Positions 28,133 to 59,620 of a DNA stretch of 64,000 nt are shown here, piece by piece. The DNA lies in the NCBI GenBank assembly GCA_037134895.1, contig JBAXLI010000003.1, forward strand, positions 43,937 to 107,936, written 5' to 3'. The notes beneath the pieces are model-generated. The model was not told the origin of the DNA, searched no databases, and worked only from the letters and a program-made list of their open reading frames with translations. Position 1 is the first letter of the stretch. Each line of letters begins with the position of its first letter. Source of the DNA: Bacteroidota bacterium. Its GTDB lineage: Bacteria > Bacteroidota > Bacteroidia > Bacteroidales > FEN-979. A program made the position numbers and the translations under genes.

Positions 28133-28217
28133 AATCAGTAAACAGCCGCCATCAGTCTTCTTAATAACTTTCGTTTTATTGTTAATATCTATTTTACTAG
28201 GAAGGAGCAAATTCGAA

Positions 28218-28225
28218 TATATTTG
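28218..28225 (+). promoter_or_regulatory. Candidate -7 promoter box of the polysaccharide operon
   Basis: TATATTTG 20 nt upstream of ATG 28246, overlapped by inverted repeat AGCAAAT...ATTTGCT (28206-28227). Confidence 0.5.
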
Positions 28226-28245
28226 CTTACCAAAATTGTATCTGA

Positions 28246-28647
28246 ATGAAAAGAAAGGTACTCGCAATAGATGATGAAAAGAGTATCCGGTTCATCATAG
28301 AAAATACATTAAATAAGGAATTCGAAGTTACGACCCTGAGTAACGGGATGGATGCCTTGTATTATATCCAGTCGGGAAACCTTCCGGATGTTATCATTTG
28401 TGATGTTGAAATGCCTGTAATGAATGGGTTTGAATTTATCAAGCGTATTCGTGAAAGTGGCTTTTTTGATGAAATACCCCTGATCATGTTGTCGGGGAAA
28501 GAAGAAAGTGCCGATAAAATCAAATGTTTTGAAATGGGGGCAGACGACTATGTGGTAAAACCGTTCAACCCAAAGGAACTCATGGTAAGGATCAAGCGCC
28601 GTATTGAAACATCAGTAGCCTTTTCAGGCAGCCGAAGGAGCCAGTAA
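28246..28647 (+). CDS. Single-domain response regulator (receiver only)
   Basis: AIDDE, DVIICDVEMP (phospho-Asp), MLSG, DDYVVKPF; no output domain. Confidence 0.93.
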   Translation: MKRKVLAIDDEKSIRFIIENTLNKEFEVTTLSNGMDALYYIQSGNLPDVIICDVEMPVMNGFEFIKRIRESGFFDEIPLIMLSGKEESADKIKCFEMGADDYVVKPFNPKELMVRIKRRIETSVAFSGSRRSQ

Positions 28648-28652
28648 ACCCG

Positions 28653-29885
28653 ATGGAGAAAGCAGCAACTACCCTTAAAATCCTGTATGTAGGCAAAAAC
28701 CAGGCGCTTATAGATAAGTTCAGGGATGCCTGTCTTTTCGAAATCACAGTTATCCGAAATCCTCTTGCTGCAATCTATTGGCTCACTGACAATCAGTTTA
28801 AAGTCTTCGATCTCGACAAGGATACAAGGTTTGACATCAAATACGAGGAGAAGCAGGAAATGGATGCAATAATATGCGAAATGCTTCTCCCGGGGATCAA
28901 CGCATTTACGTTTTACAGGCGGCTTAAGCTTAATAAATTATACCAGAAAACCCCCTTTATTGTAATTTCTCTCAACAAGGATTACAATGCAAAAAAGTAT
29001 GCCTACACTTTGGGAATTGATGATTTCTATCATGCCGGGATAAACCCGCTTCACATCTGCAGCAGGATAAAACTGCTTACAAAATTCAAATCGGAGTTTG
29101 AAAACAAAACGATTGCAGTTGATGCAACGGTGAGTTTCAATGCCTACCGCACTCCATTCCTGAAAAGGACATTTGATATCCTGGTAGCTGGGATTGCGCT
29201 TCTGATACTTTCCCCGTTCATGCTTCTGACCATGCTTGCGATCAGGCTGGAATCAAAAGGTAAAGTGTATTATTTTTCGAAACGGGTGGGTTCCAATTAC
29301 AAGATTTTTGACTTTTACAAGTTCCGCTCGATGTACCCCGATGCAGATAAAAGACTTAAGGAAGTAGAGCATTTGAACCAGTATCTCAGTGAAAATGTAG
29401 AGGAAAAATGTACTGAATGTGCAAAGCTCGCCGAAGACCATTATTGTTCTCCCCTGGTTTATTATGACGGAGAACAGATTTGTGAACGAATTGCAAACAA
29501 ACGCAGAAGTGCCAGAAAGGCGTTTCTGAAAATTAAAGATGACCCCAGGATTACAACAGTGGGCAAGTTCATCAGGATGACCAGCATTGATGAATTACCT
29601 CAGCTTATCAATGTACTTAAAGGGGATATGTCAATTGTTGGGAACAGGCCGTTACCTCTGAATGAAGCTGAGGCCCTGACGAAAAAAAAATGGAGCCGAA
29701 GGTTCAGGGCTGCTGCCGGTCTTACCGGGTTATGGCAGGTTGAGAAAAGAGGGAGGTCAGGCCCGATGTCTGAAGAAGAACGGTTTGCACTGGATAATTA
29801 CTATGCTGAACACAATTCTTTTTGGGGAGATATTGTCATAATTTTCAGAACCTTCGGAACATTGTTTCAAAAAGAAAATGTATAA
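28653..29885 (+). CDS. Priming sugar (phosphoglycosyl) transferase with N-terminal receiver-like domain
   Basis: Bac_transf motifs KRTFDIL, KFRSM, DPRIT.VGKFIR.TSIDELPQL.NVLKGDMS.VGNRP. N-terminal REC-like DAIICEMLLPG, TPFIVIS, GIDDF. Confidence 0.92.
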   Translation: MEKAATTLKILYVGKNQALIDKFRDACLFEITVIRNPLAAIYWLTDNQFKVFDLDKDTRFDIKYEEKQEMDAIICEMLLPGINAFTFYRRLKLNKLYQKTPFIVISLNKDYNAKKYAYTLGIDDFYHAGINPLHICSRIKLLTKFKSEFENKTIAVDATVSFNAYRTPFLKRTFDILVAGIALLILSPFMLLTMLAIRLESKGKVYYFSKRVGSNYKIFDFYKFRSMYPDADKRLKEVEHLNQYLSENVEEKCTECAKLAEDHYCSPLVYYDGEQICERIANKRRSARKAFLKIKDDPRITTVGKFIRMTSIDELPQLINVLKGDMSIVGNRPLPLNEAEALTKKKWSRRFRAAAGLTGLWQVEKRGRSGPMSEEERFALDNYYAEHNSFWGDIVIIFRTFGTLFQKENV

Positions 29886-30677
29886 ATGTCTGTATTAAAA
29901 ACAAAAATATCATTGTATGAGAAGATGTTAAAAACATGTATGTTTGCATTGATTGTTATCTTCCCTGCAGTTGTCTTCAGCCAGGCAACCAAGGACACAA
30001 CATATTTCAACCCATTGATTGACGACGTTATACAAAGGATCCCTCCTCTTGAGGATCTGATCGACTCAGCCATCGTGCACAATCCCCAAATTAAAAAGTG
30101 GGAAGCCGAAAGTCAGGCATGGAGATATAGGGTAAAATCTGCAAGCCGTTTATGGATGCGGAATTTATATCTTGATCTGTATCTTGAATCCGCTTTATGG
30201 AAATCAAATACCGAGAATTCAATCAACCAGCAGGAGACTACGTTTAATTATACATCCCAAAACAATTTCAATAGCATGGGGTATCTTGAAATCAAAATGC
30301 CAATGTTTGATCTCTGGGATCGAAAGAACCAGATGAAGATCGCCACAAAGGAAATCGAAAAAGCTATGGCTTCAAAAGATGAAGTCGTACTTGCTCTCAG
30401 GCAAACGATAATTACCAATTACAACCAGTTGATTGTTAACCAGAAAATTCTGAAGAATGCAAACGAGAGTGTTATTGCCGGTTCTATGAACAAGGAAATG
30501 GGCGATAAGGAATTCTTAAACGGCCAAACAACCTTGTATGAACTTGCCTACATTATGGAAATGTACCGTGTGGCAGTGTATAATTATGAAACATCAAGAA
30601 ATGCATTTTTTAATTCGTACATGATACTTCAGGAATTATGCGGGTTCAGATTCAATGTCATTAACAGAATAGAGTAA
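29886..30677 (+). CDS. TolC/OEP-like outer-membrane protein, half-length (about one OEP repeat)
   Basis: Signal peptide (possible start 29925), PPLEDLIDSAIVHNP, beta-hairpin ending LEIKMPMFDLW, long coiled coils, ..FLNGQTT..EL, LQELCG. Confidence 0.75.
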   Translation: MSVLKTKISLYEKMLKTCMFALIVIFPAVVFSQATKDTTYFNPLIDDVIQRIPPLEDLIDSAIVHNPQIKKWEAESQAWRYRVKSASRLWMRNLYLDLYLESALWKSNTENSINQQETTFNYTSQNNFNSMGYLEIKMPMFDLWDRKNQMKIATKEIEKAMASKDEVVLALRQTIITNYNQLIVNQKILKNANESVIAGSMNKEMGDKEFLNGQTTLYELAYIMEMYRVAVYNYETSRNAFFNSYMILQELCGFRFNVINRIE

Positions 30678-33367
30678 TGCAGATTATATACTTTGTAAAA
30701 ATACTTCAAAGGCATGTATTACTTCTGATACTTGTCCCACTGCTGATGGCTGCGGTTGTTTTTTTTATCACCCGCAAAGACCAATGGAATTATATTTCCG
30801 AAACAACGATTTACACAGGTGTGACCAGCGGATCTACCATACAACAGCAGGCATATGCTGATGTTATGATAAAAATGACTGTATATGATAACCTCATAAA
30901 CCTCATTAAATCTCGTCAGACTCTTGAAGAAGTTTCCGTTTCTCTGCTTGCGCAGCATCTTCTGCTTGATCATTATGACGAAAGGTATATTTCAAAAGAA
31001 CATTACGAGGAATTATTGTTAAAAGTCCCTGCTGATGTTGTGGATATTGTGAGGAAGGCAAAACGATCAAATCCGAAATTCTTCAAGGGCTCTTCGAAAA
31101 AGACCTCCCAATACGACAGTTCCTACTCATCCCCCAACAGAATGAATTATTCTGAAAAATCTACTGACGGTTCCCTCCAGCCAAGGGAATCATATCATGT
31201 AGTGAAACCCGGTGAAACCATGTTTTCAATTGCGCGTAAATACGGATCGAGTGTAAGAGAGTTAATGAGTTACAACAGATTAATGTCAAGCGACATTTCA
31301 ACCGGACAAAGAATAAGGCTGGATCTGTCTTCTCAGGTACCTGAACCTGCCGCATATCCGACAGAAAATGAAAAAATTGAGCCTGCCCCTGTAAGGGATG
31401 CAAATCAGCTAGAACCTATCGATACGGCAAGTCTGCCTTCTGATTTTTATTCTCACTTTGACACTTCGACAACTTCTGTTACTTCTCATCATAATCTCAC
31501 CGACACTAATGCATTTGACCGGCTTGTGAGGCAATTGATTGCATATGGGCATCAGAATGATCACAATTTTATTTACGAACTATGGAATTCTCAGAAAGAT
31601 GCGTTTTACAGTCTTTCTGCTCTTTCGAAGGTTGAGATCTTCAGAATCGCTAGCAGTGATCTTCTAAAACTTACTTACAAATCCACTGATCCAGGTATTT
31701 CACAGCAGACTCTGGTTTTTTTAACCAAGGGTTTTATTCGTTCATTTAAATTGCTGAAGCAGAACCAGACCGATGCAGTTATTGCATATTTTAAACGTCA
31801 GCTCGAAGATGCCATGCGACGGTTGCAAAGAGCCGAATCTGACCTTTTAGTATTCAACTCAAGAAACAACATCATTAATTTTTATGAACAGACCAAAGAA
31901 ATAGCTGGCAAGAAGGAAGAACTCGACGTAGATTATCAGAACAAACAGATCACTCTGGCTGCAGCGGACGCTGCTCTCAGGATCATTGAAAAGAAACTTG
32001 AATCGCATGCCAAACTGTCTTTAAACACAAGCACTATTTTGCAGGTGCGTGACGAACTTACAAACACAACTATGCAAATTGCCAATATTGAGATTGATCT
32101 TGGCAATGATTCCGCCACAATAAAGCAGCTAACTGGCCTTAAAAATAGAGTTGAGAATTTAAAGGCTGAATTAAAAAATAACATCGACCAGTTGTACCTT
32201 GTCACCAACTCTGTTGAAGGCTTGCCTCTAAAAGATCTCCTCAATTCATGGCTGGTAAACGTTATTTCATATGAAGAAAGCAAAGCCTCACTCAGAGTGC
32301 TCTCTGAACGCAAAAAGTATTATCTTAAAGTATATGAGATTTTTGCGCCTCTGGGAGCCCGGCAGAAACGATTTGAGCGTCTGATTGGAGTTACCGAAAG
32401 CGAATTCCTTGAACTGTTACATGATTTGAATCTGGCTAAGTTAAGGCAACAGGACGATGAAATGTCGACCAATCTCAAAGTTGTGGATGCTCCCTTTTAT
32501 CCCCTTCATGCATTGAGTTCAAAAGCCTTGTTGATGGTTCTCGCCTCCGCACTCCTCGGATTTATATTTGTAGTAATAATTCTTCTCGCCCTGGAGTTCT
32601 TCGACACCACAATAAAAACAGGTGAAAGGGCTGAACGCTTTATTAAACTGAAATTGTCGGGGCTCTATCCGAAAATTGTTAAGCAGATATACACTGTTGA
32701 TATCGGATTTATTTTACCAAGGCTGGTTGAAATCATTGCTCAGAATATACGACTCCTTCTGAATAAAACTTCGAATCTTTCTGAAAAGAAACCAGTTGTC
32801 GTCGGGATCATAAGTACACGTGACTTCGAAGGAAAAACCACTATCGGAAGAGAACTTAGCAGAAAATTCAAAGCGTTCGGAGAAAGTACAATTTTCTTCA
32901 ATTATGCTAACGAAAAGTCCGGGCCGAACGAACATTATAACAGTGTTGAACTTATCCCTCCCTCTGAAGATGAAGTACAGTATATAATTCAGGATGATTT
33001 TTTCGAAACAAAGAATTTAAAAGAACTCTTAAACGGGTATGAACATCTTGACTTCGATTCCTTTGATTATATCTTTATCGAAATGCCTTCTCTGATAAAT
33101 AACGCCTATCCCATTGATATTGTATCAAAATTTGATCTGACTCTGCTTGTTGCCAGGGCTAACCGTTCCTGGGTCGAAGCCGATACCGCGGTATTATCTG
33201 GATTCCTTTCCGCTACCAAACATCCTGTGCAAATAGTCCTTAACGGAGTCGATCTGATGTTCTTGGATTCTGTTTTTGGTGACATCCCAATGCAACGGTC
33301 GAAGTTTAGAAGAGTACTGAAGAAAATTCTGACTTTCAGGTTTGGCGAAGAAAATGTCATTTCCTGA
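30677..33367 (+). CDS. Polysaccharide co-polymerase (Wzc/GumC-like) with LysM insert and degenerate BY-kinase-like domain
   Basis: N-terminal TM + Y.SETTIYTG, periplasmic coiled coils, VVDAPFYP + second TM, STRDFEGKTT Walker-A-like; LysM at 31193-31321. Confidence 0.85.
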   Translation: MQIIYFVKILQRHVLLLILVPLLMAAVVFFITRKDQWNYISETTIYTGVTSGSTIQQQAYADVMIKMTVYDNLINLIKSRQTLEEVSVSLLAQHLLLDHYDERYISKEHYEELLLKVPADVVDIVRKAKRSNPKFFKGSSKKTSQYDSSYSSPNRMNYSEKSTDGSLQPRESYHVVKPGETMFSIARKYGSSVRELMSYNRLMSSDISTGQRIRLDLSSQVPEPAAYPTENEKIEPAPVRDANQLEPIDTASLPSDFYSHFDTSTTSVTSHHNLTDTNAFDRLVRQLIAYGHQNDHNFIYELWNSQKDAFYSLSALSKVEIFRIASSDLLKLTYKSTDPGISQQTLVFLTKGFIRSFKLLKQNQTDAVIAYFKRQLEDAMRRLQRAESDLLVFNSRNNIINFYEQTKEIAGKKEELDVDYQNKQITLAAADAALRIIEKKLESHAKLSLNTSTILQVRDELTNTTMQIANIEIDLGNDSATIKQLTGLKNRVENLKAELKNNIDQLYLVTNSVEGLPLKDLLNSWLVNVISYEESKASLRVLSERKKYYLKVYEIFAPLGARQKRFERLIGVTESEFLELLHDLNLAKLRQQDDEMSTNLKVVDAPFYPLHALSSKALLMVLASALLGFIFVVIILLALEFFDTTIKTGERAERFIKLKLSGLYPKIVKQIYTVDIGFILPRLVEIIAQNIRLLLNKTSNLSEKKPVVVGIISTRDFEGKTTIGRELSRKFKAFGESTIFFNYANEKSGPNEHYNSVELIPPSEDEVQYIIQDDFFETKNLKELLNGYEHLDFDSFDYIFIEMPSLINNAYPIDIVSKFDLTLLVARANRSWVEADTAVLSGFLSATKHPVQIVLNGVDLMFLDSVFGDIPMQRSKFRRVLKKILTFRFGEENVIS

Positions 33368-33390: not shown

Positions 33391-34788
33391 ATGTGGGCAT
33401 TCTTAAAAACTACATTGTTTAATATTTTCAAGGATGCTAATTTCCTTTCCTTCGCCGGGAATCTATCAACCTCTCTAGCCGGACTCTTTTCATACATGAT
33501 ACTTCTTCGAATGCTAACGATCCCTGATTTTGGCATTTGGATACTATTTATAGCCCCGGCTTCTATTATTGACATGCTAAGATTCGGAGTCACAAGGGAG
33601 GCCCTAGTAAGGTATCTTTCAGGATGCAGTGAGGAAGATAAGAAATACTACCTGGGATCGGCTTGGGTTGTAGGATTGCTTATACTTGCAGGCATTACTG
33701 CAATTTTGTGGACTGTGTTCCTGATCTTCCCGGGGTACATAAGGAACAGCGGTTATTCCTTGTTTTTCATCTGGTACCCTCTCCTCGGACTAGTAACCTT
33801 GCCCTGGAACTATGCATGGTCGATTTTCCAGGCCGAAATTGATTTTGGAAAAATCTTCTGGATACGATTTTTCAACCTATGCTCTTTTTTATTGATAATT
33901 CTTGCGGCCTGGCTGTTTATTAAAATAGATGTTACCATGGTAGTCCTCATCTATACTGCCACAAACCTTGCAACATCGCTGTTCTGCGTTGTCAAAAAAT
34001 GGAGCGGACTAGAGTTTATTCGTCGCATCAGTAAAATCAAGGTTATCGAGATTGTGAAATACGGGAGGTATTCAATGGCAACCCGGATCGGGAGCGGACT
34101 GTTAAAAGGCGCTGACAGCATCATCATTTCTTTCAGCGCTTTTATGGGGCCTGCCAGCGTTGCGCTTTATGCAATTCCTCTGAAGTATATTGAATTCATT
34201 GAGATTCCCCTACTAAGCTTTGCAACTACTGCGTTCCCGAAGTTTTCAAAAATGAGTATGGAGGAAAATATCGATGGTTTTAAAAAGATATTTTACAATT
34301 ATACCGGTCCACTTGTGTACCTGTTTTTAATAATTGCAGTAGTCAGCCTGGTTCTGAACAAATACTTCATCCTTATTCTGGGCGGACAAAAGTATTTAAC
34401 AACATCGGGGCTCTCTTATGTGTTGATGATCTTTATTCTCTATGGTTTGCTGATGCCGCTTGACCGGTTTGCAGGGGTAGCTCTTGACAGCCTCAACAGA
34501 CCGGATAAAAACTTTCAGAAGGTTGCAATAATGGCTCTTGCAAATATTGCAGGCGACATTTTTGCAGTTTTCGGACTTCATTACTTTTTTCCTGAAATGC
34601 CCCCTATCACGATTCTTGCTTTTGTAGCTGTCGCCTCGATAGTGTTCTCAGTGATCGGCCTATTCGTAGGATATTATTTCCTTAAACAAGAGATCGACAT
34701 CTCATTAACCTTAGTTTTTAAAAAGGGTTTCATGTTTTATAAGGACCTTCCTAAGCGTATTAAGAACAAAGAACCATTATTTCAATGA
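33391..34788 (+). CDS. wzx: Oligosaccharide flippase (Wzx/MOP family)
   Basis: About 12 TM helices, R.L...DFGIW, GPASVALYAIP, AFPKFSK; -7-like box TAAATTTG at 33376-33383. Confidence 0.82.
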   Translation: MWAFLKTTLFNIFKDANFLSFAGNLSTSLAGLFSYMILLRMLTIPDFGIWILFIAPASIIDMLRFGVTREALVRYLSGCSEEDKKYYLGSAWVVGLLILAGITAILWTVFLIFPGYIRNSGYSLFFIWYPLLGLVTLPWNYAWSIFQAEIDFGKIFWIRFFNLCSFLLIILAAWLFIKIDVTMVVLIYTATNLATSLFCVVKKWSGLEFIRRISKIKVIEIVKYGRYSMATRIGSGLLKGADSIIISFSAFMGPASVALYAIPLKYIEFIEIPLLSFATTAFPKFSKMSMEENIDGFKKIFYNYTGPLVYLFLIIAVVSLVLNKYFILILGGQKYLTTSGLSYVLMIFILYGLLMPLDRFAGVALDSLNRPDKNFQKVAIMALANIAGDIFAVFGLHYFFPEMPPITILAFVAVASIVFSVIGLFVGYYFLKQEIDISLTLVFKKGFMFYKDLPKRIKNKEPLFQ

Positions 34789-36257
34789 GCTATATGAACC
34801 CATTCCATACATTAAAAGGATCTGAAATTCTCAGAAATCCAATAGTAGTTGGAATCGTATTAATGGCTACCATTATTCTAGGTTTTGCCTTGGCAATTGG
34901 AGGCTACATTACCATTGGGATCGTAATAGCTGTACCCATTCTCTTTTTTGCTTTCTACAAACTTATTCAAAAGCCTGAGGTCGGAGTGACGTTCGCACTT
35001 ATCCTTAATTTTTTTGTCATAGGGATGATGAGATATATCCCATTAAAGCTAGGTTATTTAATGGACATCTCCTTAATTTCTATTTATTTTGCCATGTTTT
35101 TCCATTATTTTAATAAAAAAATCGATCTTAGTCCTGCAAATACTGATTTGACTTATCTTGCGATTGTCTGGTTCAGTTACATTTTTCTTGAATTATTTAA
35201 CCCTGAGGCAGTCAATAAAACAGCATGGTTTGCCTCAATGCGAGGCATCGGTTTATATTTCGTTTTAATTATACCTCTGATTCAACTACTTTATAATGAC
35301 CCCAAATACCTTGATCGTTTTTTTAAAATTTGGGGAATTATTTCGATTTTAGCATCGATCAAAGCTTGGATGCAGCTCAATCTTGGACCTGACCGCTGGG
35401 AACAAAAATGGCTTGATGAGGTCGGCGGTTCAACACATATTTTGTACGGAAACCTTAGGGCATTCTCTTTCTTTTCTGATGCTGGTCAATTCGGAGCTGC
35501 ACAAGGACAGATTCTTATTATATCATTTATCATTTTGATGAATGAAAAACGGTTAAAGGAAAAAATCTTTTGGCTTATTGTACTCGTTACAGGCTATTAT
35601 GGGATGTCCAGTTCAGGTACCCGGGGTGCAATTTTTGTACCATTGGCTGGTGGAGCATTGTATATTATCATTAAAAAAAATGTCAAAATTATTATAATTG
35701 GAGTCATTGCTCTGGTAATGATTTATTCCTTTTTCAGATTCACAACAATAGGAAATTCAAATTATCAAATCTATCGTATGCGTACTGCTTTTACTCCTGA
35801 AGATGATGCTTCTTTCCAGGTCAGGATCAAAAACCAAGCAATTTTTGAGGAATACCTAAAAAGTAGACCATTTGGAGGAGGAATAGGTCATGCGGGCGAA
35901 CGTGCCAAGTTATACACAGGAGAAACTTTCCTGTCAAACGTTGCCACTGATAGTTGGTTTGTACTTATATGGTCAGAAAGTGGGATTGTAGGTCTGTTCC
36001 TACATATGTTTATCCTGGGTTGGATTATTGGCAAAAGTATATATATATGTATGTTTCAATTGCAAAATAATGAACTGGTGGTCAAATCCACTGCACTTTT
36101 ATGTGGTTTTTTCGGAATAATTGTTGCCAGTTATGGAAATTCAATACTCGGCCAGTTTCCAACAGGTTTTTTAATTTATACAAGTATGGCGTTTGTTTTC
36201 ATGGCTCCTTCATTTGACAAGAGAATTAATTCACCGATGAAATATCCTCTAACCTAA
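34785..36257 (+). CDS. O-antigen ligase/polymerase (Wzy_C) family membrane protein
   Basis: Polytopic; RAFSFFSDAGQFG, SGTRGA, DASFQVR, RPFGGGIG, TDSWFVLIWSESGIVG. Confidence 0.85.
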   Translation: MSYMNPFHTLKGSEILRNPIVVGIVLMATIILGFALAIGGYITIGIVIAVPILFFAFYKLIQKPEVGVTFALILNFFVIGMMRYIPLKLGYLMDISLISIYFAMFFHYFNKKIDLSPANTDLTYLAIVWFSYIFLELFNPEAVNKTAWFASMRGIGLYFVLIIPLIQLLYNDPKYLDRFFKIWGIISILASIKAWMQLNLGPDRWEQKWLDEVGGSTHILYGNLRAFSFFSDAGQFGAAQGQILIISFIILMNEKRLKEKIFWLIVLVTGYYGMSSSGTRGAIFVPLAGGALYIIIKKNVKIIIIGVIALVMIYSFFRFTTIGNSNYQIYRMRTAFTPEDDASFQVRIKNQAIFEEYLKSRPFGGGIGHAGERAKLYTGETFLSNVATDSWFVLIWSESGIVGLFLHMFILGWIIGKSIYICMFQLQNNELVVKSTALLCGFFGIIVASYGNSILGQFPTGFLIYTSMAFVFMAPSFDKRINSPMKYPLT

Positions 36258-36477: not shown

Positions 36478-37401
36478 ATGAAAGAAAGATTTCCTCTCGT
36501 TTCAATAATAGCAGGGACATATAACCAACCAGAGCTAACCTTAGATTTTATTAAGTCTCTGAAACAAATCACTTACCCTAATTATGAGGTCATTATTTTC
36601 GATAATGCTTCGGATAAAAAGAAACCCGGCATTATTAAAGAGAGATATCCCGAGATCACCCTGATAGAAAACAAGGAAAATCTGGGATATGGAGGAGGAA
36701 ACAATATTGGTATCAGAGCTGCGAAAGGGAAGTACCTTTTATTGATCAATAACGATGTAGAGGTTGAACCTGATTTTCTCGAACCACTGGTCGCAAAACT
36801 CGAGAGTGATCCAACGATAGCAGTATGCAACCCCAAAATAAGATTCTTTTTCAAACCCGACACAATACAGTATATCGGATTTACGGCTATCACTACAATT
36901 ACTGTCAGGAACGAAGGGATCGGTTATGGGGAAAAGGATACCGGACAATATGAAGAAGACCGGTTTACCCACTATGGCTGCGGTACAGCAATGCTTCTGC
37001 CGATTGAGGCAATTAAAAAAGTTGGATTAATCTCAGAACTCTTTTTCCTTTATTATGATGAAATGGATTGGTTTCAGAGATTTAATGATGCAGGGTACAA
37101 AAATGCCTATGTGCATAACTCATTGATCTACCATAAAGATTCCATGACCACTGGGGCCATGAGCCCATATAAAACTTACTTTGTGAGCAGAAACCGCATA
37201 CTTTATCTCAGACGTAATGTATCCGGATTTAAGTTCTATCTCGCTATCCTTTACCAGTTTCTTATCGCGGTTCCCAAAAACATGCTTGTCTTCCTGTTAA
37301 AAGGACAGTTCAAGCATTTTATTGCTTTTAAAAATGCCATTGGTTGGCATTTTGCGAATGCATTTAATCCGGAAGTCCATAAGAATATAAGCCTGGACTG
37401 A
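36478..37401 (+). CDS. Glycosyltransferase family 2 (WbbL/RfbF-like), copy 1
   Basis: PLVSII, FDNAS, NLGYGGGNN, LLINND, FFLYYDEMDW. Confidence 0.9.
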   Translation: MKERFPLVSIIAGTYNQPELTLDFIKSLKQITYPNYEVIIFDNASDKKKPGIIKERYPEITLIENKENLGYGGGNNIGIRAAKGKYLLLINNDVEVEPDFLEPLVAKLESDPTIAVCNPKIRFFFKPDTIQYIGFTAITTITVRNEGIGYGEKDTGQYEEDRFTHYGCGTAMLLPIEAIKKVGLISELFFLYYDEMDWFQRFNDAGYKNAYVHNSLIYHKDSMTTGAMSPYKTYFVSRNRILYLRRNVSGFKFYLAILYQFLIAVPKNMLVFLLKGQFKHFIAFKNAIGWHFANAFNPEVHKNISLD

Positions 37402-37402
37402 A

Positions 37403-38326
37403 ATGGGTTTGGCATCCTATCCGCTTGTTTCAATCGTAACGGTTAATTTCAATGGTTCAGAAGACACCATTGAAATGATTGAGTCCCTTACAAAAATAAC
37501 CTACCCAAACATCGAGATCATTGTTGTTGACAATTATTCTGAGAATGACAATCCGCGGACAATTAAAGATAAATTTCCTGGCATAGTCCTCTATGAAAGT
37601 AATTTAAATATGGGCTTTGCCGGAGGAAATAACCTCGGGATCATGCGTGCAAGAGGAGATTATGTGCTGCTCCTTAATAATGATACCATCGTTGACAAGG
37701 GATTTCTTGAACCCCTTGTCACTAGAATGCAGAGAGACCCGAAAATCGGCTGTGTAAGCGCCAAACTGAGGTTTTATTATGACCGCAATGTGATTCAGTT
37801 TGCAGGATACACCCCTATCAACCACCGCACCATGCGAAGCTTTGCAATCGGGTACCGCGAAAAAGACAAAGGTCAGCATGATCAGGATAAAGAAACCCCT
37901 TACGCTCATGGCGCAGCTATGATGGTTTCGATGAAAGTGATCAAGGAAATAGGAATCATGTCCTATATCTTCTTCCTTTATTATGAGGAGGCAGATTGGA
38001 GCTACAGAATTAAAAAAGCAGGATATACAATCTGGTACGTCCATAATTCCCTGGTATATCATAAAGAATCAATAGCTGTTGGCAAGCTCAGCGATTCCAA
38101 AGTTTACTACCAGAACAGGAACAGGATTGTTTTCATGAGACGCAATGTAACCGGAAAGGATTTCTATATCGGTATTCTTTATCAGCTATGTGTTGCCATA
38201 CCCAAAAACGCTCTCAAGTATCTTGCAAAAGGCAAAATAAATTATTTCCATGCATACCTGAGGGCTATCGGATGGCATATTAAAAACGCCGTCAATCCTG
38301 TTATTCATGATAATCCCCACTTATAA
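37403..38326 (+). CDS. Glycosyltransferase family 2, copy 2 (paralogue of the upstream gene)
   Basis: PLVSIV, VDNYS, NMGFAGGNN, LLLNND, FFLYYEEADW; same 307-aa length. Confidence 0.9.
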   Translation: MGLASYPLVSIVTVNFNGSEDTIEMIESLTKITYPNIEIIVVDNYSENDNPRTIKDKFPGIVLYESNLNMGFAGGNNLGIMRARGDYVLLLNNDTIVDKGFLEPLVTRMQRDPKIGCVSAKLRFYYDRNVIQFAGYTPINHRTMRSFAIGYREKDKGQHDQDKETPYAHGAAMMVSMKVIKEIGIMSYIFFLYYEEADWSYRIKKAGYTIWYVHNSLVYHKESIAVGKLSDSKVYYQNRNRIVFMRRNVTGKDFYIGILYQLCVAIPKNALKYLAKGKINYFHAYLRAIGWHIKNAVNPVIHDNPHL

Positions 38327-38439
38327 ATCCCGCCTGTGAAAAATAATTTGCAATGTCTCAGAGGTATTATGGGTTTTTGTATTTTTACTCAGGTAAAAGC
38401 CTTTTACAGTTTGTGATTTAATAAGTTAAACCAGATCAT

Positions 38440-39216
38440 ATGAAAGTTGTTATTCTTGCAGGCGGACTTGGCACCAGGTTAAGCGAAGAAACTGATCTGA
38501 AGCCGAAACCCATGGTAGAGATTGGTGGAAAACCCATTCTGTGGCATATTATGAAGATATATTCCCATTACGGGTTTAATGATTTTGTAATCTGCTGCGG
38601 ATATAAAGGTTACCTTATTAAAAAATATTTTGCGGATTACTTCCTGAACCAGTCCGACGTTACAATTGATCTCAGTTCGAACAAAATGGAGTTGCTAAAC
38701 CTCCAGACCGAGCCCTGGAAAGTGACCCTTGCCGATACAGGCCTGACAACCATGACCGGGGGGCGTATCAAGCGCATTCAGAAGTATCTCGATAGCAAAA
38801 CATTCATGCTTACATATGGTGATGGCCTCAGCAATGTGAACATTTCCAACTTGCTCGACTTTCATCGAAAAAGCGGAAAACTGGCCACCATTCTCGCCGT
38901 TCAGACGGCTGGAAGATTTGGTGCAATTCAATTGGATGATCATAGCCACCAGGTCCGCAGTTTCAAGGAGAAACCCACAGGAGACGGTGCTTTTATTAAT
39001 GGGGGATTCTTTGTTCTGGAACCGAAAATATTCGACTACATCCAGGGTGGTGACGAAACAACATGGGAAAGAGACCCGCTTGAACACATTGCCCAGGATA
39101 ACCAATTGATAGCCTTTACACATATAGGTTTCTGGAGGCCTATGGATACCTTGCGTGATAAATTCGAACTTGAACAGATGTGGAATTCTGAAAAATGTGA
39201 TTGGAAAGTATGGTAA
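38440..39216 (+). CDS. rfbF: Glucose-1-phosphate cytidylyltransferase (DdhA)
   Basis: MKVVILAGGLGTRLSEET..KPKPMVEIGG, TMTGGRIKR, GFWRPMDTLRD. Confidence 0.95.
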   Translation: MKVVILAGGLGTRLSEETDLKPKPMVEIGGKPILWHIMKIYSHYGFNDFVICCGYKGYLIKKYFADYFLNQSDVTIDLSSNKMELLNLQTEPWKVTLADTGLTTMTGGRIKRIQKYLDSKTFMLTYGDGLSNVNISNLLDFHRKSGKLATILAVQTAGRFGAIQLDDHSHQVRSFKEKPTGDGAFINGGFFVLEPKIFDYIQGGDETTWERDPLEHIAQDNQLIAFTHIGFWRPMDTLRDKFELEQMWNSEKCDWKVW

Positions 39217-39217
39217 T

Positions 39218-40300
39218 ATGGCGCCGAAACGAGAATTTTGGAATGATAAGCGGGTCCTTCTAACAGGACATACAGGATTCAAGGGTTCCTGGCTTTGCCT
39301 GATCTTGCATCAATTGGGAGCCAAAGTACACGGGTTTGCCTTGGATCCACCTACAAATCCCAGTTTATTCGAAGAGGCAAAAATCAATGAACTCCTCACC
39401 TCGACGATTTGTAACATTCGCGATTATGGCGGATTGCTGAATACCTTGGAACAGGCACAGCCTGAGATCGTAATTCATATGGCCGCACAGCCCCTGGTCA
39501 GGGAATCCTATAAGGATCCAATTGGCACCTATTCAACCAATGTCATGGGTACGGTTCACCTGCTTGAAGCCTGCCGGCATACGAATTGCGTCAGATCGAT
39601 CGTCAATGTGACCACTGACAAATGTTATGAAAACAGGGAGTGGCACTGGGGTTACCGTGAAAATGAACCCATGGGCGGTTATGATCCGTATTCTAACAGC
39701 AAAGGTTGTTCTGAGCTCATCACCTCATCCTACCGCTCGTCATTTTTTAATGTAAAGGAATACACCAAACATCGAGTTGCTGTGGCAACCGCAAGGGCAG
39801 GAAATGTCATTGGCGGAGGAGATTGGGCCAATGACCGGCTGATCCCTGATTTCATCAAGGCCATATCAAAAGGAGAAGAGGTTCTCATCCGCAGTCCTTA
39901 CGCAATAAGGCCATGGCAGCATGTATTGGAACCATTGACCGGGTATCTAACACTCGCAGAAAAGTTGTTCAACGAAGGAGCCAGATTTTCTGAAGCCTGG
40001 AATTTCGGTCCCGATGACGTGGACGTCAGAAATGTTGAATGGGTTATAAGAACAATTTGTGAATTATGGGGAAAAGGCGCATCCTACAAGGTCGACACGA
40101 ATCCTCAGCCCCATGAGGCCAACTTTCTCAAACTTGACTGTTCAAAATCCAAAGCAGAATTGAACTGGTTCCCCCGTTGGAATCTCGATACCGCTCTCCT
40201 CAGTATTGTTGAATGGAACAAAGCCTGGCTCGGTGGAAAAAACATGAGAAACGTGACAGAAGAGCAGATCAACAGGTATTATTCAGAAAAAACACCATGA
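39218..40300 (+). CDS. rfbG: CDP-glucose 4,6-dehydratase (DdhB)
   Basis: TGHTGFKGSWL, HMAAQPLVR, TTDKCYEN, DPYSNSK, ARAGNVIGGGDW, RPWQHVLEP. Confidence 0.95.
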   Translation: MAPKREFWNDKRVLLTGHTGFKGSWLCLILHQLGAKVHGFALDPPTNPSLFEEAKINELLTSTICNIRDYGGLLNTLEQAQPEIVIHMAAQPLVRESYKDPIGTYSTNVMGTVHLLEACRHTNCVRSIVNVTTDKCYENREWHWGYRENEPMGGYDPYSNSKGCSELITSSYRSSFFNVKEYTKHRVAVATARAGNVIGGGDWANDRLIPDFIKAISKGEEVLIRSPYAIRPWQHVLEPLTGYLTLAEKLFNEGARFSEAWNFGPDDVDVRNVEWVIRTICELWGKGASYKVDTNPQPHEANFLKLDCSKSKAELNWFPRWNLDTALLSIVEWNKAWLGGKNMRNVTEEQINRYYSEKTP

Positions 40301-41646
40301 TTACCATTTTAGGCGGAGGAATATCAGGTTTAAGTACTTCTTATCATCTGGGCCATGAAAACTGTATAATTTTTGAAAAGAAAAACTATATCGGCGGACA
40401 TGTTTACTCTTATACCAAAGATGGTTTCACCTGGGACGAAGGTCCTCATGTTTCATTTACGAAGCATGAGTATGTAAAGAATCTATTTCAGAAGAGTGTG
40501 AACTCCGAATTCCTTCAGTTTCCGGTAACAATAACCAATTATTATCATGGAAGCTGGATTCCCCACCCTGCCCAGAGCAACCTTTATGCTATTCCACAAC
40601 CCTTAAGAGATCAAGTTCTCGCAGATTTTCTCAGTTCACGCAACAATGCAAAAACCAATCCGGCTGATTTTGAAGAATGGCTCGTTATGGCATTCGGTAA
40701 AACGTTTGCCGAGAATTTTCCCAGAGCCTACACCAAAAAATACTGGACTGATGATCCGAAAAACCTGACCACCGACTGGGTTGGTGACCGGGTATTCTAT
40801 CCTGCCATCGATGATGTGAAAAACGGATATCTGGGTCCACTGAAAAGACAAACCCATTATATAACCGAAGTCAGATATCCCAAAGCAGGAGGATACTTGT
40901 CATTTTCATATGAACTGACCAAGGGAGCAAATATCCATCTCAATAAAAAAGTCACGCTGCTTTCATTTCGGGAGAAAAAAATTCATTTTTCCGACGGGAC
41001 CATCCATGATTTTGACGAGCTGATCTCTACGATTCCCCTGCCTGAACTGATCGAAATCAGCGACGCCCCGGAGGATATTAAAACCACCGCCCGTTCACTC
41101 AACTATTCTTCCCTCTTGTTGGTCAATGTGGTTGCAAATCATATGAGCGTTCAGCCTTACCATTGGCTGTATGTTTATGATCTGGAAAAGTATTCAACCA
41201 GGATCACCTGCACCGAAAGTCTTTCTCCCTTGAATGGCAAGCCGCATCAGACAGGAATCCAGGTAGAAATATATTTTTCTAATTCAAAACAAAAGCTTGA
41301 ATTGGACGAGGTGATCGCCGGGAAAGTTTGCGAGGAACTGGTGGAAATGGGACTCATCCGGGAAAAACACAATATTCTGAATATGCATACCAGATGGGCT
41401 CCCTGGGCCAATGTAATCTTTGATCATTCTCGAAGAAAAAAACAGGAAATGATTTTCAACTGGCTTGAGCAATTTGGACTTTCACGTGAGCAGGATGATC
41501 TGGATCCAATGACCAATTGGGTATCAAAAGCAGATGAACAAGTGAAACTCGGAAAACTGGTATTGGCAGGAAGATTTGCCCAATGGAAATATTTCTGGAG
41601 CGATGATTGTGTGTTAAGAGGAAAAACAATTGCAGAGAAAAAGTAA
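40297..41646 (+). CDS. Flavoprotein, NDP-sugar pyranose-furanose mutase-like (UGM/WbyH-like)
   Basis: ILGGGISGLS, WDEGPHVSF, YTKKYWT, YPKAGG, C-terminal GRFAQWKYFWSD; ATGA overlap with rfbG. Confidence 0.7.
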   Translation: MITILGGGISGLSTSYHLGHENCIIFEKKNYIGGHVYSYTKDGFTWDEGPHVSFTKHEYVKNLFQKSVNSEFLQFPVTITNYYHGSWIPHPAQSNLYAIPQPLRDQVLADFLSSRNNAKTNPADFEEWLVMAFGKTFAENFPRAYTKKYWTDDPKNLTTDWVGDRVFYPAIDDVKNGYLGPLKRQTHYITEVRYPKAGGYLSFSYELTKGANIHLNKKVTLLSFREKKIHFSDGTIHDFDELISTIPLPELIEISDAPEDIKTTARSLNYSSLLLVNVVANHMSVQPYHWLYVYDLEKYSTRITCTESLSPLNGKPHQTGIQVEIYFSNSKQKLELDEVIAGKVCEELVEMGLIREKHNILNMHTRWAPWANVIFDHSRRKKQEMIFNWLEQFGLSREQDDLDPMTNWVSKADEQVKLGKLVLAGRFAQWKYFWSDDCVLRGKTIAEKK

Positions 41647-41656
41647 AACGCTGAAT

Positions 41657-42553
41657 ATGGATCATGAAATTCTGAAACATAAAACCATCCTCATCACCGG
41701 GGCCACCGGGTTCATAGGCAGAAACCTTTTAAAAAAACTGTATGGCCTTGGCTTAAAGGTAATTGCGGTTGTATACAAAGATGATACGACTTCCCTTCCT
41801 ATTGAAGAAATTCATTATGATGGCAGTTATCAGAGCCTCGAAACAGCAGCCACAGATAGCAACATCGATTTTGTTATCCATCTAGCAACCCAGTTTCTTT
41901 CAAACCACAAACCAGAACAGATATCTGCCCTAATTGATGCGAATGTTAAATTCGGAAACCATCTTTTAGAATTTACAAGACAGAAAAAAATTCCTTTTTT
42001 CATAAATACATCAACATATTATGAGTACTACCAGCACGACGGGTACAATCCTCAGAATCTTTATGCTGCGACAAAATATGCGTTCGAAACAATTATGAAA
42101 TATTACGAAGGCGTTACTTCATCCCATTTTGTCACGCTAGAGCTGACCGATACCTACGGGCCGGGTGATCCAAGGCCCAAGTTTATCAATCTCGTGATCG
42201 ATGCCATCCGCAAAAAAGAAATCTTTAAAATGTCACCTGGAGAGCAGGAGATTTGTTATTTATACATTGATGATGCTGTTGATGCATTTATCTTTTGCAT
42301 GTGTTTAATGACAAAAAAAATCATTATCAAAAACAGTCATTTTTCAGTATATGCAGATGAAGTATTCAAGCTAAAAAATTTAGTTCAAATGGTGGCAAAC
42401 CTAATGAATTTTGACCTTGTAACTGAAGCAGGTTTTTATCCTTACAGGGAAAGAGAGATCATGATATTTAAACCAACTTTCTCCAATTTGCCAAACTGGA
42501 AAAGCAAAGTATCAATGAAAGAAGGGCTGAATTTCCTTCTTACAAAACGATAA
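41657..42553 (+). CDS. NAD-dependent extended SDR, probable CDP-4-keto-3,6-dideoxyhexose reductase (Abe/Prt/AscF-like)
   Basis: TGATGFIG, HLAT, YAATK (YxxxK), DTYGPGD, YREREIM; context among ddh genes. Confidence 0.75.
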   Translation: MDHEILKHKTILITGATGFIGRNLLKKLYGLGLKVIAVVYKDDTTSLPIEEIHYDGSYQSLETAATDSNIDFVIHLATQFLSNHKPEQISALIDANVKFGNHLLEFTRQKKIPFFINTSTYYEYYQHDGYNPQNLYAATKYAFETIMKYYEGVTSSHFVTLELTDTYGPGDPRPKFINLVIDAIRKKEIFKMSPGEQEICYLYIDDAVDAFIFCMCLMTKKIIIKNSHFSVYADEVFKLKNLVQMVANLMNFDLVTEAGFYPYREREIMIFKPTFSNLPNWKSKVSMKEGLNFLLTKR

Positions 42554-42727
42554 TCTCCTCGGTCATTTAAAGATTCTGCCTCAATTCTAGATGTTTTTAT
42601 AGAAAAAATTCTTTAGGTAATCAAAATAACCAAGTAATAATCTCGTCCTTATGACTTTACAGAAGATGGAAACAATGCAACTTGGTAAATTATATTAAAT
42701 CGTATTTTTGGATAAAGTTCAAATATA

Positions 42728-42973
42728 ATGGATCAACAAGCTATAATGATTGTTCTAGAGAAGATTTTCGGTGAGGTTATTGATAACAGCAATATTCGAT
42801 TGAACTCAGAAACAGTCGTTTCTGAGTTAGAGGGATGGGATTCTTTTTCACAGATCCGGCTAATCCTTCTTTTAGAAAAATCATTTAACGTTCGATTTAC
42901 GTCTCAGGAGATTCAATCATGGGCTAATGTGGGAGAACTTTGTCTAACAATTCACCTAAAAACCATCTGTTGA
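42728..42973 (+). CDS. Acyl carrier protein
   Basis: GWDSFSQI phosphopantetheine motif, EKSFNVRF, NVGEL; -7 box TATTTTTG at 42703-42710. Confidence 0.85.
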   Translation: MDQQAIMIVLEKIFGEVIDNSNIRLNSETVVSELEGWDSFSQIRLILLLEKSFNVRFTSQEIQSWANVGELCLTIHLKTIC

Positions 42974-44422
42974 ATGTTTTTTAATTCCATTCAGTATATC
43001 CTCTTTCTCCCTATAGTAGTTGTACTATTTTATATTACTCCCTTACGATTCCGTTGGTTACTTCTTCTTTCTACAAGCTACTACTTTTACATGTGCTGGA
43101 TTCCTGAATTAATTATCGTAATTGTTGCTTCCACTCTAGTGAATTATACTTTTGCGATATCAATATCCAAGCAAACCACCCAAAGCAGGAAAAAGCTATT
43201 GTTGATATCAACACTTATACTCAACCTTGGAACGCTGATAGTTTTTAAGTATTTGGGGGTTGTCAGAGAGATCATTCATTCATTATATTCGACGAACAAT
43301 CCAGGTAATTTATCCTCTGCTTTCTTTCTTATTGCTCCAATCGGCATTTCATATTATACCCTTCAATCTTTAAGTTATATTTTGGATGTTTATTATGGGA
43401 AACGTAAAGCGGAGAGGCATCCTGGCATTTTTGCCCTTTATGTTGCCTTTTTCCCCCTTATACTTTCTGGTCCAATTGAGCGCTCAACTCATTTACTACC
43501 ACAGTTTCGCGAAAAAGAACGTATCAAACTTAATTCCACTAATATAGAAGAAGGTATTAAACTTATTATCTTCGGGTATTTCCTTAAGCTAGTTATTGCC
43601 GACCGCACCTCTATTTATGTAGATGCTGTCTTTGGCAACATCCAAAGACATGGTGGAATCACCTTTATTGTGACAATAATACTTTACAGCTTTCAGATCT
43701 ATTCCGATTTTGCAGGATATTCTGCTATCGCTATTGGTTCTGCACGGTTGATGGGATTTGATGTGTATCAGAACTTCAATCGCCCTTATTTCTCCTCTAC
43801 GATTCGCGAATTCTGGACCCGTTGGCATATTTCTCTTTCCATATGGTTGAGGGATTATCTTTTTAACCCCTTAACGTTCTATTTTATGAGAGTTTTTCGG
43901 AAAGAATGCTATTTGAAAATTATCAGCCCAGAACTTCTTACATATGCTTTTTCAGCCTTCATTACATTTGTTATTTGTGGATTATGGCATGGTGCCAGGT
44001 TTACGTTCCTGATATGGGGAAGCCTTCACGGGATTTACCTGATAATAGAAAGAGCAACTAAACGTAAATCAGATAAAACGATACTGAATATAATCATTAC
44101 TTATATAATGATTTTATTTACTTGGATATTTTTCCGTTCTGATAATGTTAATGATGCATTCCTTATAATCCGAACAATTTTCACACACCCTGGTAGCCTT
44201 TATATCCCATTCGATAATGATGTAGTCGCACCGGTATATGCCATTCTTGGGATCCTCATTCTTGTAGTGATGGAGGTGAAAAAAGAATTCTTTAATCAAA
44301 AGTTCTCACTTACAAATAACAAGAATGAATATGTGAGAATGATTAGTTTCGGATTGATGATTTTCTTAATTCTTTACCTAGGGGTTTTTGATGCTAGCCA
44401 GTTCATGTATTTCAAATTCTGA
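42974..44422 (+). CDS. MBOAT O-acyltransferase (AlgI/DltB/PatA-like)
   Basis: PIGISYYTLQ, FFPLILSGPIER, QIYSDFAGYS, NFNRPY, FWTRWHISLS, GLWHGA. Confidence 0.93.
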   Translation: MFFNSIQYILFLPIVVVLFYITPLRFRWLLLLSTSYYFYMCWIPELIIVIVASTLVNYTFAISISKQTTQSRKKLLLISTLILNLGTLIVFKYLGVVREIIHSLYSTNNPGNLSSAFFLIAPIGISYYTLQSLSYILDVYYGKRKAERHPGIFALYVAFFPLILSGPIERSTHLLPQFREKERIKLNSTNIEEGIKLIIFGYFLKLVIADRTSIYVDAVFGNIQRHGGITFIVTIILYSFQIYSDFAGYSAIAIGSARLMGFDVYQNFNRPYFSSTIREFWTRWHISLSIWLRDYLFNPLTFYFMRVFRKECYLKIISPELLTYAFSAFITFVICGLWHGARFTFLIWGSLHGIYLIIERATKRKSDKTILNIIITYIMILFTWIFFRSDNVNDAFLIIRTIFTHPGSLYIPFDNDVVAPVYAILGILILVVMEVKKEFFNQKFSLTNNKNEYVRMISFGLMIFLILYLGVFDASQFMYFKF

Positions 44423-44425
44423 CTT

Positions 44426-45778: not shown

Positions 45779-45810
45779 GTTGTAATTGTTGATTCACAAT
45801 ATTAAATTTG
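45779..45810 (+). promoter_or_regulatory. Candidate sigma-A promoter for the large T9SS gene
   Basis: GTTG (45779-45782), 20-nt spacer, TAAATTTG (45803-45810), upstream of ATG 45831. Confidence 0.45.
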
Positions 45811-45830
45811 AATTCCAAATCAATAGTATT

Positions 45831-53357: not shown

Positions 53358-53358
53358 T

Positions 53359-56310: not shown

Positions 56311-56313
56311 ACC

Positions 56314-57072: not shown

Positions 57073-57136
57073 GTGGGTCAGTTTTATTGCAACTTGCAAT
57101 ACTATTGACCCGGGTGAACAACGAATGAAGGTATTT

Positions 57137-57168
57137 TTTGTTTCTGGCGGCATGCCGCCAGAAACAAA
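57137..57168. repeat. Perfect 32-bp palindrome inside the IS right end (possible terminator hairpin)
   Basis: TTTGTTTCTGGCGGCA|TGCCGCCAGAAACAAA. Confidence 0.85.
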
Positions 57169-58306: not shown

Positions 58307-58369
58307 ACCGAATATTCACTGTCGCTCATCTTGTGCTTATTGTTTGTTGGAATTGCATTAGCTTTAAGT

Positions 58370-58377: not shown

Positions 58378-58409
58378 CAAGTCTTCGGTTTTAATGAAAA
58401 TTCATCGGT

Positions 58410-59615: not shown

Positions 59616-59620
59616 TAAAT

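Follow-up and report, generated by a model that had tools for sequence, protein, structure and literature searches.

This study concerns a polysaccharide gene cassette in a 64,000-nucleotide stretch of DNA (the window) from a Bacteroidota bacterium (class Bacteroidia, order Bacteroidales, FEN-979; assembly GCA_037134895.1, here genome G000). The window covers positions 43937-107936 of the 133-kb contig JBAXLI010000003.1 (C3). Four open reading frames (ORFs) are located exactly at 28246-33367, encoding a stand-alone receiver protein (REC), a priming phosphoglycosyl transferase (PGT), a half-length TolC-like protein (hTolC), and a polysaccharide co-polymerase (PCP). These four and the following genes for a Wzx-like flippase and a Wzy polymerase constitute a head-to-tail run of six genes on the plus strand. 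The junctions, in order from REC to Wzy, are 5 nt, 0 nt (TAA then ATG), a 1-nt overlap (TAATG), 23 nt, and a 4-nt overlap (ATGA). The four-gene string is best explained as the operon that heads a Wzx/Wzy-dependent polysaccharide locus of 44 kb. An earlier sequence-only reading of this DNA had described four tightly packed genes, namely a receiver-only regulator, a priming transferase with a pseudo-receiver, a half-length TolC, and a LysM-bearing Wzc-like protein; both the gene arrangement and the domain calls were borne out.

Proteins of the head operon

The hTolC protein contains one OEP repeat (PF02321) at residues 55-218, which scored 48 bits against a cut-off of 22 bits. A profile of 110 family members matched the E. 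coli TolC (1EK9/2XMN) twice, at 5-187 and 208-397 (E 3.8e-13), and each match covered the whole length of hTolC, including the membrane hairpin and the long helices. Because the family profile aligns at full length to each half of TolC, hTolC is one complete TolC repeat rather than a fragment. The family members are 220-295 aa long. The word-indexed search returned 106 relatives, nearly all of about 235-275 aa with a few shorter fragments or partial sequences; where named by the source, they are TolC family proteins of Bacteroidota. The profile search against 1.84 billion representatives revealed 735 relatives at E ≤0.001, and the best 150 of these 735 were all 121-295 aa with a single matched stretch. 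The ESM Atlas search with hTolC returned its own family only. The half length is thus a trait of the family.

TolC assembles as a trimer with a 12-stranded barrel and a helical tunnel. Comparison of hTolC with the outer-membrane factors (OMFs) of this fold, such as E. coli TolC, OprM, and CusC (PF02321), showed that they share one complete repeat with hairpin and helices, a signal peptide, and presumably the role of an exit duct that reaches into the periplasm. The OMFs have two tandem repeats in about 420-510 aa and work with an adaptor and an inner-membrane pump; whereas hTolC has one repeat, and its gene neighbours are the priming transferase and the PCP. Its conserved signal peptide is followed by a near-invariant Gln33, in keeping with the pyroglutamate rule for Bacteroidota proteins that are secreted. 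Over the 110 sequences, positions 92-105 and 130-140 show a hydrophobicity that alternates from one residue to the next, and a variable polar loop rich in gaps (106-129) is flanked by conserved aromatic, Gly, and Pro positions. The pattern of the 92-140 region fits a two-stranded membrane β-hairpin.

In the present genome, 33 OEP repeat matches were found. These are paired in frames of at least 421 aa with two exceptions, hTolC itself and a 516-aa frame in which only one match was seen; hTolC is the sole short, single-repeat OEP frame. A quick and poorly resolved tree grouped 23 hTolC members (SH-aLRT 92) apart from the N-terminal and C-terminal repeats of 15 full-length OMFs; the latter were the full-length channels of this genome, leaving out one two-repeat gene with one scored repeat and one single-match gene. 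In another genome (G421), the locus L098 has a 651-aa frame (6748-8703) directly before the PCP gene, in which an Acyl_transf_3 domain (42-378) is fused to an OEP repeat (453-647). This frame could be a real fusion, or the result of a lost stop codon with the signal peptide retained.

The PCP begins with a membrane helix, followed by about 585 periplasmic residues; after these come a Pro-rich motif, a second helix, and a P-loop domain in the cytoplasm (helices and Pro-rich motif assigned by eye). The two helices flanking the periplasmic domain, the Wzz N-terminal region, and the Pro-rich motif are as expected for a PCP-2a protein. The Wzz match is weak (19.7 bits, below the cut-off); the orthologues gave 26-35 bits together with GNVR matches. 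Similarity to the canonical Wzc of the same genome is marginal (E 0.11), and the two are barely alignable. A LysM domain (46.8 bits, residues 174-215) lies in an insertion of about 185 aa (residues ~119-304) relative to the homologues without LysM. Among 30 PCPs of the family that were scanned (26 of the 33 from the class-wide sample described below and four from the first set), LysM was found in only two, both from the nearest sampled family; the others are 678-814 aa long and carry Wzz and/or GNVR.

The bacterial tyrosine kinases (BY-kinases) of canonical Wzc proteins are defined by the Walker A, A', and B motifs and a C-terminal Tyr cluster. In the PCP the GKT of Walker A is conserved, the acidic Walker A' motif is lost, and the Asp of Walker B is replaced by Glu802. 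No C-terminal Tyr cluster and no AAA_31 match were found, so that this protein lacks the full feature set of an active BY-kinase. The cytoplasmic domain looks like a pseudokinase.

The stand-alone REC matched PF00072 with 101.5 bits and has no output domain. The receiver hallmarks D9, D10, D53, S83, and K105 all occur in it, each with at least 90% conservation among 35 orthologues, which suggests a canonical receiver that can be phosphorylated. The transferase gave a Bac_transf match (PF02397) of 199 bits over residues 171-405, and TIGR03025 scored 238 bits, below its cut-off. The small monotopic PGTs (monoPGTs) have a re-entrant helix and an Asp-Glu dyad, whereas a four-helix bundle belongs to the large ones. 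By eye, the transferase has the hydrophobic helix with Ser-Pro and the conserved Asp-Glu pair of a small, PglC-like monoPGT. The 179-position Bac_transf model stretches over 235 residues in this protein, and the insertion in the catalytic domain contains four invariant Cys (253, 256, 265, and 277), spaced like a small metal-binding knuckle.

The N-terminal part of the transferase resembles a receiver. The match at residues 61-136 reached 27.7 bits, just short of the 30.2-bit cut-off; moreover, the N-terminus is recognisably related to the neighbouring REC (24% identity, E 2e-13), with E76 aligned to D53 of REC. E76 is at least 90% conserved in 34 orthologues, the acidic pair is changed to GK or GN, and the Lys is Ala128 in the present protein. 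This N-terminus is therefore predicted to be a pseudo-receiver that cannot be phosphorylated, because of the Glu at the phospho-site, the loss of the acidic pair, and the replaced Lys.

Recurrence of the cassette and its surroundings

Three sets of loci were analysed. The first contains 39 loci found with the hTolC alignment, four of which are cut by contig ends. PCP was directly downstream of hTolC in all 35 assessable loci, and REC, transferase, Wzx, and Wzy were in place in nearly all loci. For the second set, 398 good genomes, sampled evenly over the class, were searched with a narrow hTolC profile (A1), which matched 35; PCP directly followed hTolC in 33 of the 34 loci fetched. The exception (L094 of G399) is a remnant with REC, transferase, and an hTolC gene carrying an in-frame TGA, followed by housekeeping genes; a full PCP of this lineage is located about 13 kb upstream on the same contig. 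This sole cassette without PCP thus has a stopped hTolC, and was counted as support for the hTolC-PCP partnership. For the third set, a PCP profile matched 59 genomes, and the 29 loci without an earlier hTolC or with a second PCP copy were examined with a wider hTolC profile (A2). hTolC was directly upstream of PCP in 26 of the 29; two of the misses are canonical kinase PCPs with AAA_31, and the third is the locus L128. The PCP search and the wider profile added 21 carriers to the 35, and hence at least 56 of the 398 genomes (14%) carry hTolC. Five genomes (G193, G042, G221, G324, and G398) have two cassettes, each with its own hTolC; for example, the hTolC proteins of the two on contig C3 of G193 (L131 and L130) are distinct, with 245 and 279 aa.

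The four-gene arrangement is far beyond chance, because the same gene order recurs in dozens of genomes, down to an hTolC identity of 25-30%. Wzx and Wzy are also syntenic in most cassettes. No efflux adaptor or pump gene was found beside hTolC in the loci examined. These observations mark hTolC as the dedicated partner of this PCP lineage. In the second set, about 20 of the 34 loci have REC and transferase just upstream, three have them in part, and 11 lack them. The four-gene string is accordingly two modules, an invariant hTolC-PCP export core and a signal/initiation module of REC and PGT that is often joined to it, because the latter is missing beside 11 of the 34 cassettes. The LysM domain and the pseudo-receiver were also considered as defining features of the system; this was rejected, since both are lineage-specific add-ons. 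The G364 genome has three stand-alone REC genes in tandem ahead of the pseudo-receiver transferase (L109:4880-6848).

Two hybrid histidine kinases (L006:6785-8200 and 8197-9531) form the end of the locus, about 5.8-8.6 kb beyond the window. In four of five relatives, an orthologue of the second kinase (79-81% identical) shares contig and strand with the cassette and lies 19-30 kb downstream of it; in the fifth it is on a contig that cannot be related to the cassette. Moreover, PAS-rich hybrid kinases adjoin the REC gene in four other families, and two of these kinases carry Hpt. The present genome encodes one stand-alone Hpt protein (116 aa) and three Hpt domains inside large kinases.

The distribution of OPX (outer-membrane polysaccharide export) proteins such as Wza was also investigated. 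No Poly_export, SLBB, or other OPX match was found in ORFs of at least 90 aa from 28246 to the window end, in the 9.5 kb past the window up to the locus end, or on the 133-kb contig. Searches with phmmer, using the two Wza proteins of the present genome as queries, revealed no Wza within 2.5-10 kb of any cassette, and very divergent OPX proteins could escape such a search. The present genome has only two PF02563 matches, on contigs C9 and C1. These Wza proteins (274 and 269 aa) have Poly_export and one SLBB, and each gene is directly before its own canonical AAA_31 Wzc. The pair on C9 (L004; 1138-4476) is located between PAPS-reductase-like and radical-SAM MiaB-like genes, with no glycosyltransferases nearby, and orthologues of its Wza are the sole OPX in many related genomes. 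The pair on C1 (L005; 128000-147000) is accompanied by a WecA-type priming enzyme, with an ABC-2/Wzt transporter downstream. A 173-aa REC and a 523-aa PAS-REC protein are encoded just upstream of it, and two large Hpt-bearing kinases a few kb away; receiver genes beside priming enzymes thus recur in the present genome.

Among the genomes of the first set, 36 of 39 were searched for Poly_export (three short or duplicate contigs were left out), and 34 contained it, mostly in exactly one copy. The 44 regions around the Poly_export matches include 32 with a short Wza, of which 30 adjoin a canonical Wzc and two are on contigs <3 kb. The other 12 have a long OPX (~775-850 aa): seven with a short Wzz-type PCP beside or near it, two with an unassigned neighbour, and three without a PCP alongside. 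Each Wza is already spoken for by its own Wzc, and we only infer that hTolC replaces Wza in a pathway working without any OPX.

These results bear on further claims of the sequence-only reading. The reported lack of a Wza or other OPX gene in the visible locus extends to the window end, the locus end, and the contig, and the similar gene strings that it mentions for other Bacteroidota do exist, with the same order in dozens of other genomes. The proposal that the four genes are one system holds for the hTolC-PCP core; for REC and PGT it fails in the 11 cassettes that lack them.

Interpretation and alternative explanations

The reading that we favour, at a probability of about one half, is that the cassette encodes a dedicated exit duct of the TolC fold that is coupled to a pseudokinase co-polymerase, and that priming is controlled by a phosphorelay. 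The export part is proposed because hTolC and PCP are adjacent and translationally coupled (TAATG), a whole repeat matches TolC, no OPX is encoded nearby, and the Wza proteins have their own Wzc. The domain identities, the single repeat with its hairpin pattern, the conserved synteny, and the kinases within the locus belong to the same observed basis. hTolC would be exported by means of its signal peptide, and its two-stranded hairpin would be inserted into the outer membrane. TolC needs three copies; because hTolC has one repeat per chain, six or more chains per barrel would oligomerise into a TolC-like duct. The periplasmic helices of this duct would meet the helical arms of the dedicated co-polymerase, so that hTolC would occupy the place held by Wza/OPX in the classical systems. 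In the present lineage, the LysM of the co-polymerase might pin the assembly to peptidoglycan, and its cytoplasmic domain would be a pseudokinase. The hybrid histidine kinases at the locus end may phosphorylate the stand-alone REC, either directly or via an Hpt protein. The phosphorylated REC would bind the pseudo-receiver of the transferase, and switch initiation on or off at the protein level. The proposed elements are thus the oligomer, the contact between duct and PCP, the independence from OPX, and the binding of receiver to pseudo-receiver. A bolder version, which seems rather improbable as a whole, is that hTolC is without the three-fold constraint and takes the symmetry of the co-polymerase (e.g. 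eight copies and a 16-stranded barrel); it would then form a fourth kind of translocon with no OPX, pinned by LysM and gated by the receiver in this lineage, and could also represent the TolC fold as it was before duplication.

Several observations weigh against the duct reading. One concern is the distribution of Poly_export, which was found in 54 of 56 carriers and in 321 of 342 non-carriers (375 of 398 genomes overall, a tally that includes G124 and G202). An exporter may be supplied in trans, because the carriers are not depleted in OPX. Four carriers gave no PF02563 match (G018, G025, G314, and G389), and none of them is securely free of OPX. In G018, G314, and G389, a contig edge truncates the canonical wzc, and therefore the wza beside it is probably unassembled; G025 is a genome of unknown completeness. 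The candidate explanation that carriers lack OPX was consequently rejected, since Poly_export occurs at the base rate of the class and the apparently OPX-free genomes are assembly gaps. In three related genomes (G008, G009, and G034), the long OPX without a neighbouring PCP could serve in trans. Moreover, L128 contains a true PCP of this lineage without hTolC upstream, and the fusion to an inner-membrane acyltransferase domain at L098 fits an outer-membrane protein only if the internal signal peptide is cleaved. As for the control of priming, neither kinase of the locus has an Hpt domain, and the pseudo-receiver is absent from the transferase in L098, L119, and L121 although the REC gene is present. 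The receiver need not act through the pseudo-receiver, because such cassettes exist and REC and PGT do not adjoin 11 of the 34 cassettes. The locus or pathway may also be impaired in the present genome, because an IS21-family element splits one glycosyltransferase gene.

The sequence-only reading had expected the string to be anti-correlated with PF02563, and the survey contradicts this expectation. It had also regarded a Wza encoded just downstream, or consistently co-occurring, as evidence against itself. None is just downstream; co-occurrence is formally present genome-wide, but only at the base rate. The claim that a TolC-fold channel replaces Wza is favoured by the adjacency, the coupling, and the lack of a nearby OPX, whereas the genome-level Poly_export of the carriers speaks against it.

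The same distribution is an argument for the main alternative, which we consider rather unlikely, and in which hTolC and PCP borrow an OPX from elsewhere (the housekeeping short Wza or a long orphan OPX), and hTolC is the pore that a short class-3-like OPX lacks. The short Wza proteins of the present genome have the class-3 architecture, and class-3 OPX proteins have no outer-membrane pore and need a separate porin (PMC12819527); the long OPX genes without a PCP neighbour would be further candidates. However, the short Wza is beside its own Wzc in 30 of 32 regions and never beside hTolC. hTolC cannot be the general pore partner of short OPX proteins, because it occurs in about 14% of the sampled genomes and Poly_export in 94%. 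The number of OPX copies is also no higher with the cassette (~1.9 per carrier in the 35 carriers of the narrow-profile set, against 1.7 overall). It is much less probable that hTolC is not a polymer conduit at all, but a periplasmic or membrane-tethered helical scaffold that tunes PCP assembly or chain length, or a protein that exports something else. The L098 ORF, with its inner-membrane acyltransferase domain, would suit such a scaffold, and the literature search yielded no report of a single repeat forming a barrel. The hairpin pattern, the aromatics, and the variable loop kept across 110 sequences speak against it, as do the conserved signal peptide and the lack of an efflux adaptor or pump among the neighbours.

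A further alternative concerns the regulation only, and is possible, though we would not expect it to prevail: REC might be a phosphate sink or relay for the hybrid kinases, or its target might be a different protein, for instance the PCP with its pseudokinase domain, and the pseudo-receiver might have a structural or dimerisation role. The cassettes with REC but without a pseudo-receiver, the three tandem REC genes of L109, and the REC genes that adjoin a priming enzyme of another type in a further polysaccharide locus of this genome would be consistent with this. The direct control assumed in the duct reading is favoured by the adjacency of REC and transferase (5 nt here) in most cassettes having them, by the relationship between the two receiver domains, and by a precedent from Myxococcus, in which the single-domain EpsW, once phosphorylated, binds the priming transferase EpsZ and activates it (PMC12802240).

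EpsZ of M. xanthus is a large dimeric monoPGT that lacks the dimerising β-hairpin and has no receiver-like domain; whereas the enzyme here is a small monoPGT of the PglC-like kind with a fused pseudo-receiver. The authors noted that small monoPGTs can carry fused receiver domains (PMC12802240). The input to EpsW-EpsZ is a chemosensory kinase, and the proposed input here is the hybrid kinases within the locus. The sequence-only reading knew of no mechanistic characterisation of such strings; EpsW-EpsZ supplies a precedent for the step from receiver to transferase, while for the export step no paper on a TolC-type PCP partner was found.

Comparison with the Wza-Wzc system of E. coli (PMC12881504) also showed common features. 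Both belong to the Wzx/Wzy pathway, both have a PCP with two helices, periplasmic helical arms, and a C-terminal P-loop domain, and in both the gene of the outer-membrane partner is directly upstream of the PCP gene. In contrast, hTolC has no Poly_export or SLBB, and the PCP here has no Walker A' motif or Tyr cluster. The LysM block of the PCP is in the place equivalent to the membrane-proximal jellyroll of E. coli Wzc (residues 112-204, PMC12881504), by position only. A pore other than the Wza helix barrel has a precedent in the Wzx/Wzy pathways of Myxococcus, where a class-3 OPX works with a porin (PMC9603273, PMC9601211, PMC12819527); however, these composite translocons still include an OPX and use an 18-stranded β-barrel. 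No mention of TolC, OEP, or LysM was found in the text searched of two OPX class papers. DevBCA-HgdD of Anabaena (PMC6161253) is an example of a TolC-type duct whose cargo across the outer membrane is a glycoconjugate and not a drug or protein; whereas HgdD is a TolC of full length that works with an ABC transporter plus a membrane-fusion adaptor, and its substrate is a glycolipid, not a Wzy-made polymer. The literature search, which did not cover subscription journals, turned up neither a single-repeat TolC nor a PCP partner of the TolC type. A large efflux review attributes the two TolC repeats to gene duplication, and the portion of it that was searched gave no match for Wza, Bacteroidetes, or half-size.

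The passage of polysaccharides across the outer membrane is settled only in a few model systems, and the recent finding that most OPX proteins lack a pore has reopened the question of the exit. A TolC-fold PCP partner in about one-seventh of the sampled genomes of the class would, if true, be a new exit route, and hTolC would be the first natural half-TolC, useful for studies of duct assembly and docking. The receiver and pseudo-receiver pair on a priming enzyme offers a compact and testable case of protein-level control of initiation; if true, the signal module would add a second phylum and a second enzyme class to the single example from Myxococcus.

Other genes of the polysaccharide locus

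The features of the window are listed in Table 1. From the REC start to the second hybrid kinase the locus spans about 44 kb, and the flanking genes beyond converge on it. In the leader between uvrB and REC, the sequence TATATTTG at 28218-28225, 21 nt before the REC ATG, fits the Bacteroidota -7 motif, TAnnTTTG. A search for sigma-70 promoters and terminators gave matches at chance level only, and the Rfam search matched no element. The Wzx-like protein gave a weak match to NCBIfam WZX_like (15 bits) and no Pfam match; by eye it is a polytopic membrane protein.

Table 1. Coordinates of the features in and around the cassette
Feature	Coordinates	Strand	Remarks
uvrB	26111-28132		upstream neighbour; stop at 28132
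Intergenic leader, likely operon promoter	28133..28245	+	113-nt gap after uvrB
REC	28246..28647	+	133 aa; PF00072
Small monotopic PGT with predicted N-terminal pseudo-receiver	28653..29885	+	410 aa
hTolC, single-repeat TolC-like outer-membrane protein	29886..30677	+	263 aa; one OEP repeat
Divergent PCP-2a-like co-polymerase with inserted LysM and degenerate kinase	30677..33367	+	896 aa
Wzx-like flippase	33391..34788	+	assigned from position and synteny
Wzy polymerase	34785..36257	+	Wzy_C 37.7 bits
Two GT2 glycosyltransferases, CDP-glucose pathway genes, FAD oxidoreductase, epimerase, MBOAT and DltD-like O-acylation pair	36478..45373	+	Pfam
1715-aa PKD_6-repeat protein with type IX secretion tail	45786..50933	+	11 PKD_6 (361 bits); Por_Secre_tail 21 bits
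RfbH-like 3-dehydrase, flavin reductase, RmlC-like epimerase (3,6-dideoxyhexose branch)	51042..53895	+	
TuaH-like glycosyltransferase gene split by IS21-family element	53926..57613	+	
Hexapeptide acyltransferase, two GT2, two GT4, TuaH-like glycosyltransferase	57668..64000	+	Pfam, NCBIfam; locus continues past window

A CDP-derived 3,6-dideoxyhexose and O-acylation are probable features of the polymer. The dideoxyhexose is indicated by the CDP-glucose pathway together with an RfbH-type 3-dehydrase, a reductase, and an epimerase. The glucose-1-phosphate cytidylyltransferase (TIGR02623, 419 bits) and the CDP-glucose 4,6-dehydratase (TIGR02622, 504 bits) are both above their cut-offs, and RfbH matched NF011936 with 673 bits (cut-off 423); the rmlC match (141 bits) and the DltB-like MBOAT match (174 bits) are below theirs. 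FAD_binding_8 and NAD_binding_1 also matched within this branch (51042-53895).

The two parts of the interrupted glycosyltransferase gene align to an intact paralogue, the N-part (53926-54795, 289 aa) to residues 27-289 and the C-part (57317-57613, 98 aa) to residues 310-396. The IS21 element between them consists of istA (54871-56310) and istB (56314-57072), with 52-nt inverted repeats at 54774-54825 and 57222-57273. Past the window, six genes on the same contig encode two GT1 glycosyltransferases, an acyltransferase, a GT2, a beta-helix protein, and a methyltransferase, in this order. The gene of the PKD_6-repeat protein has a GC content of 0.49, against about 0.34-0.44 in its surroundings; it may be an insertion or encode a co-expressed surface protein. 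The RfbH-like dehydrase (within 51042-53357) has about 105 extra N-terminal residues with no Pfam match, and the flavin reductase beside it is only 229 aa, with no ferredoxin domain shown. The iron-sulfur domain may have moved between these two proteins.

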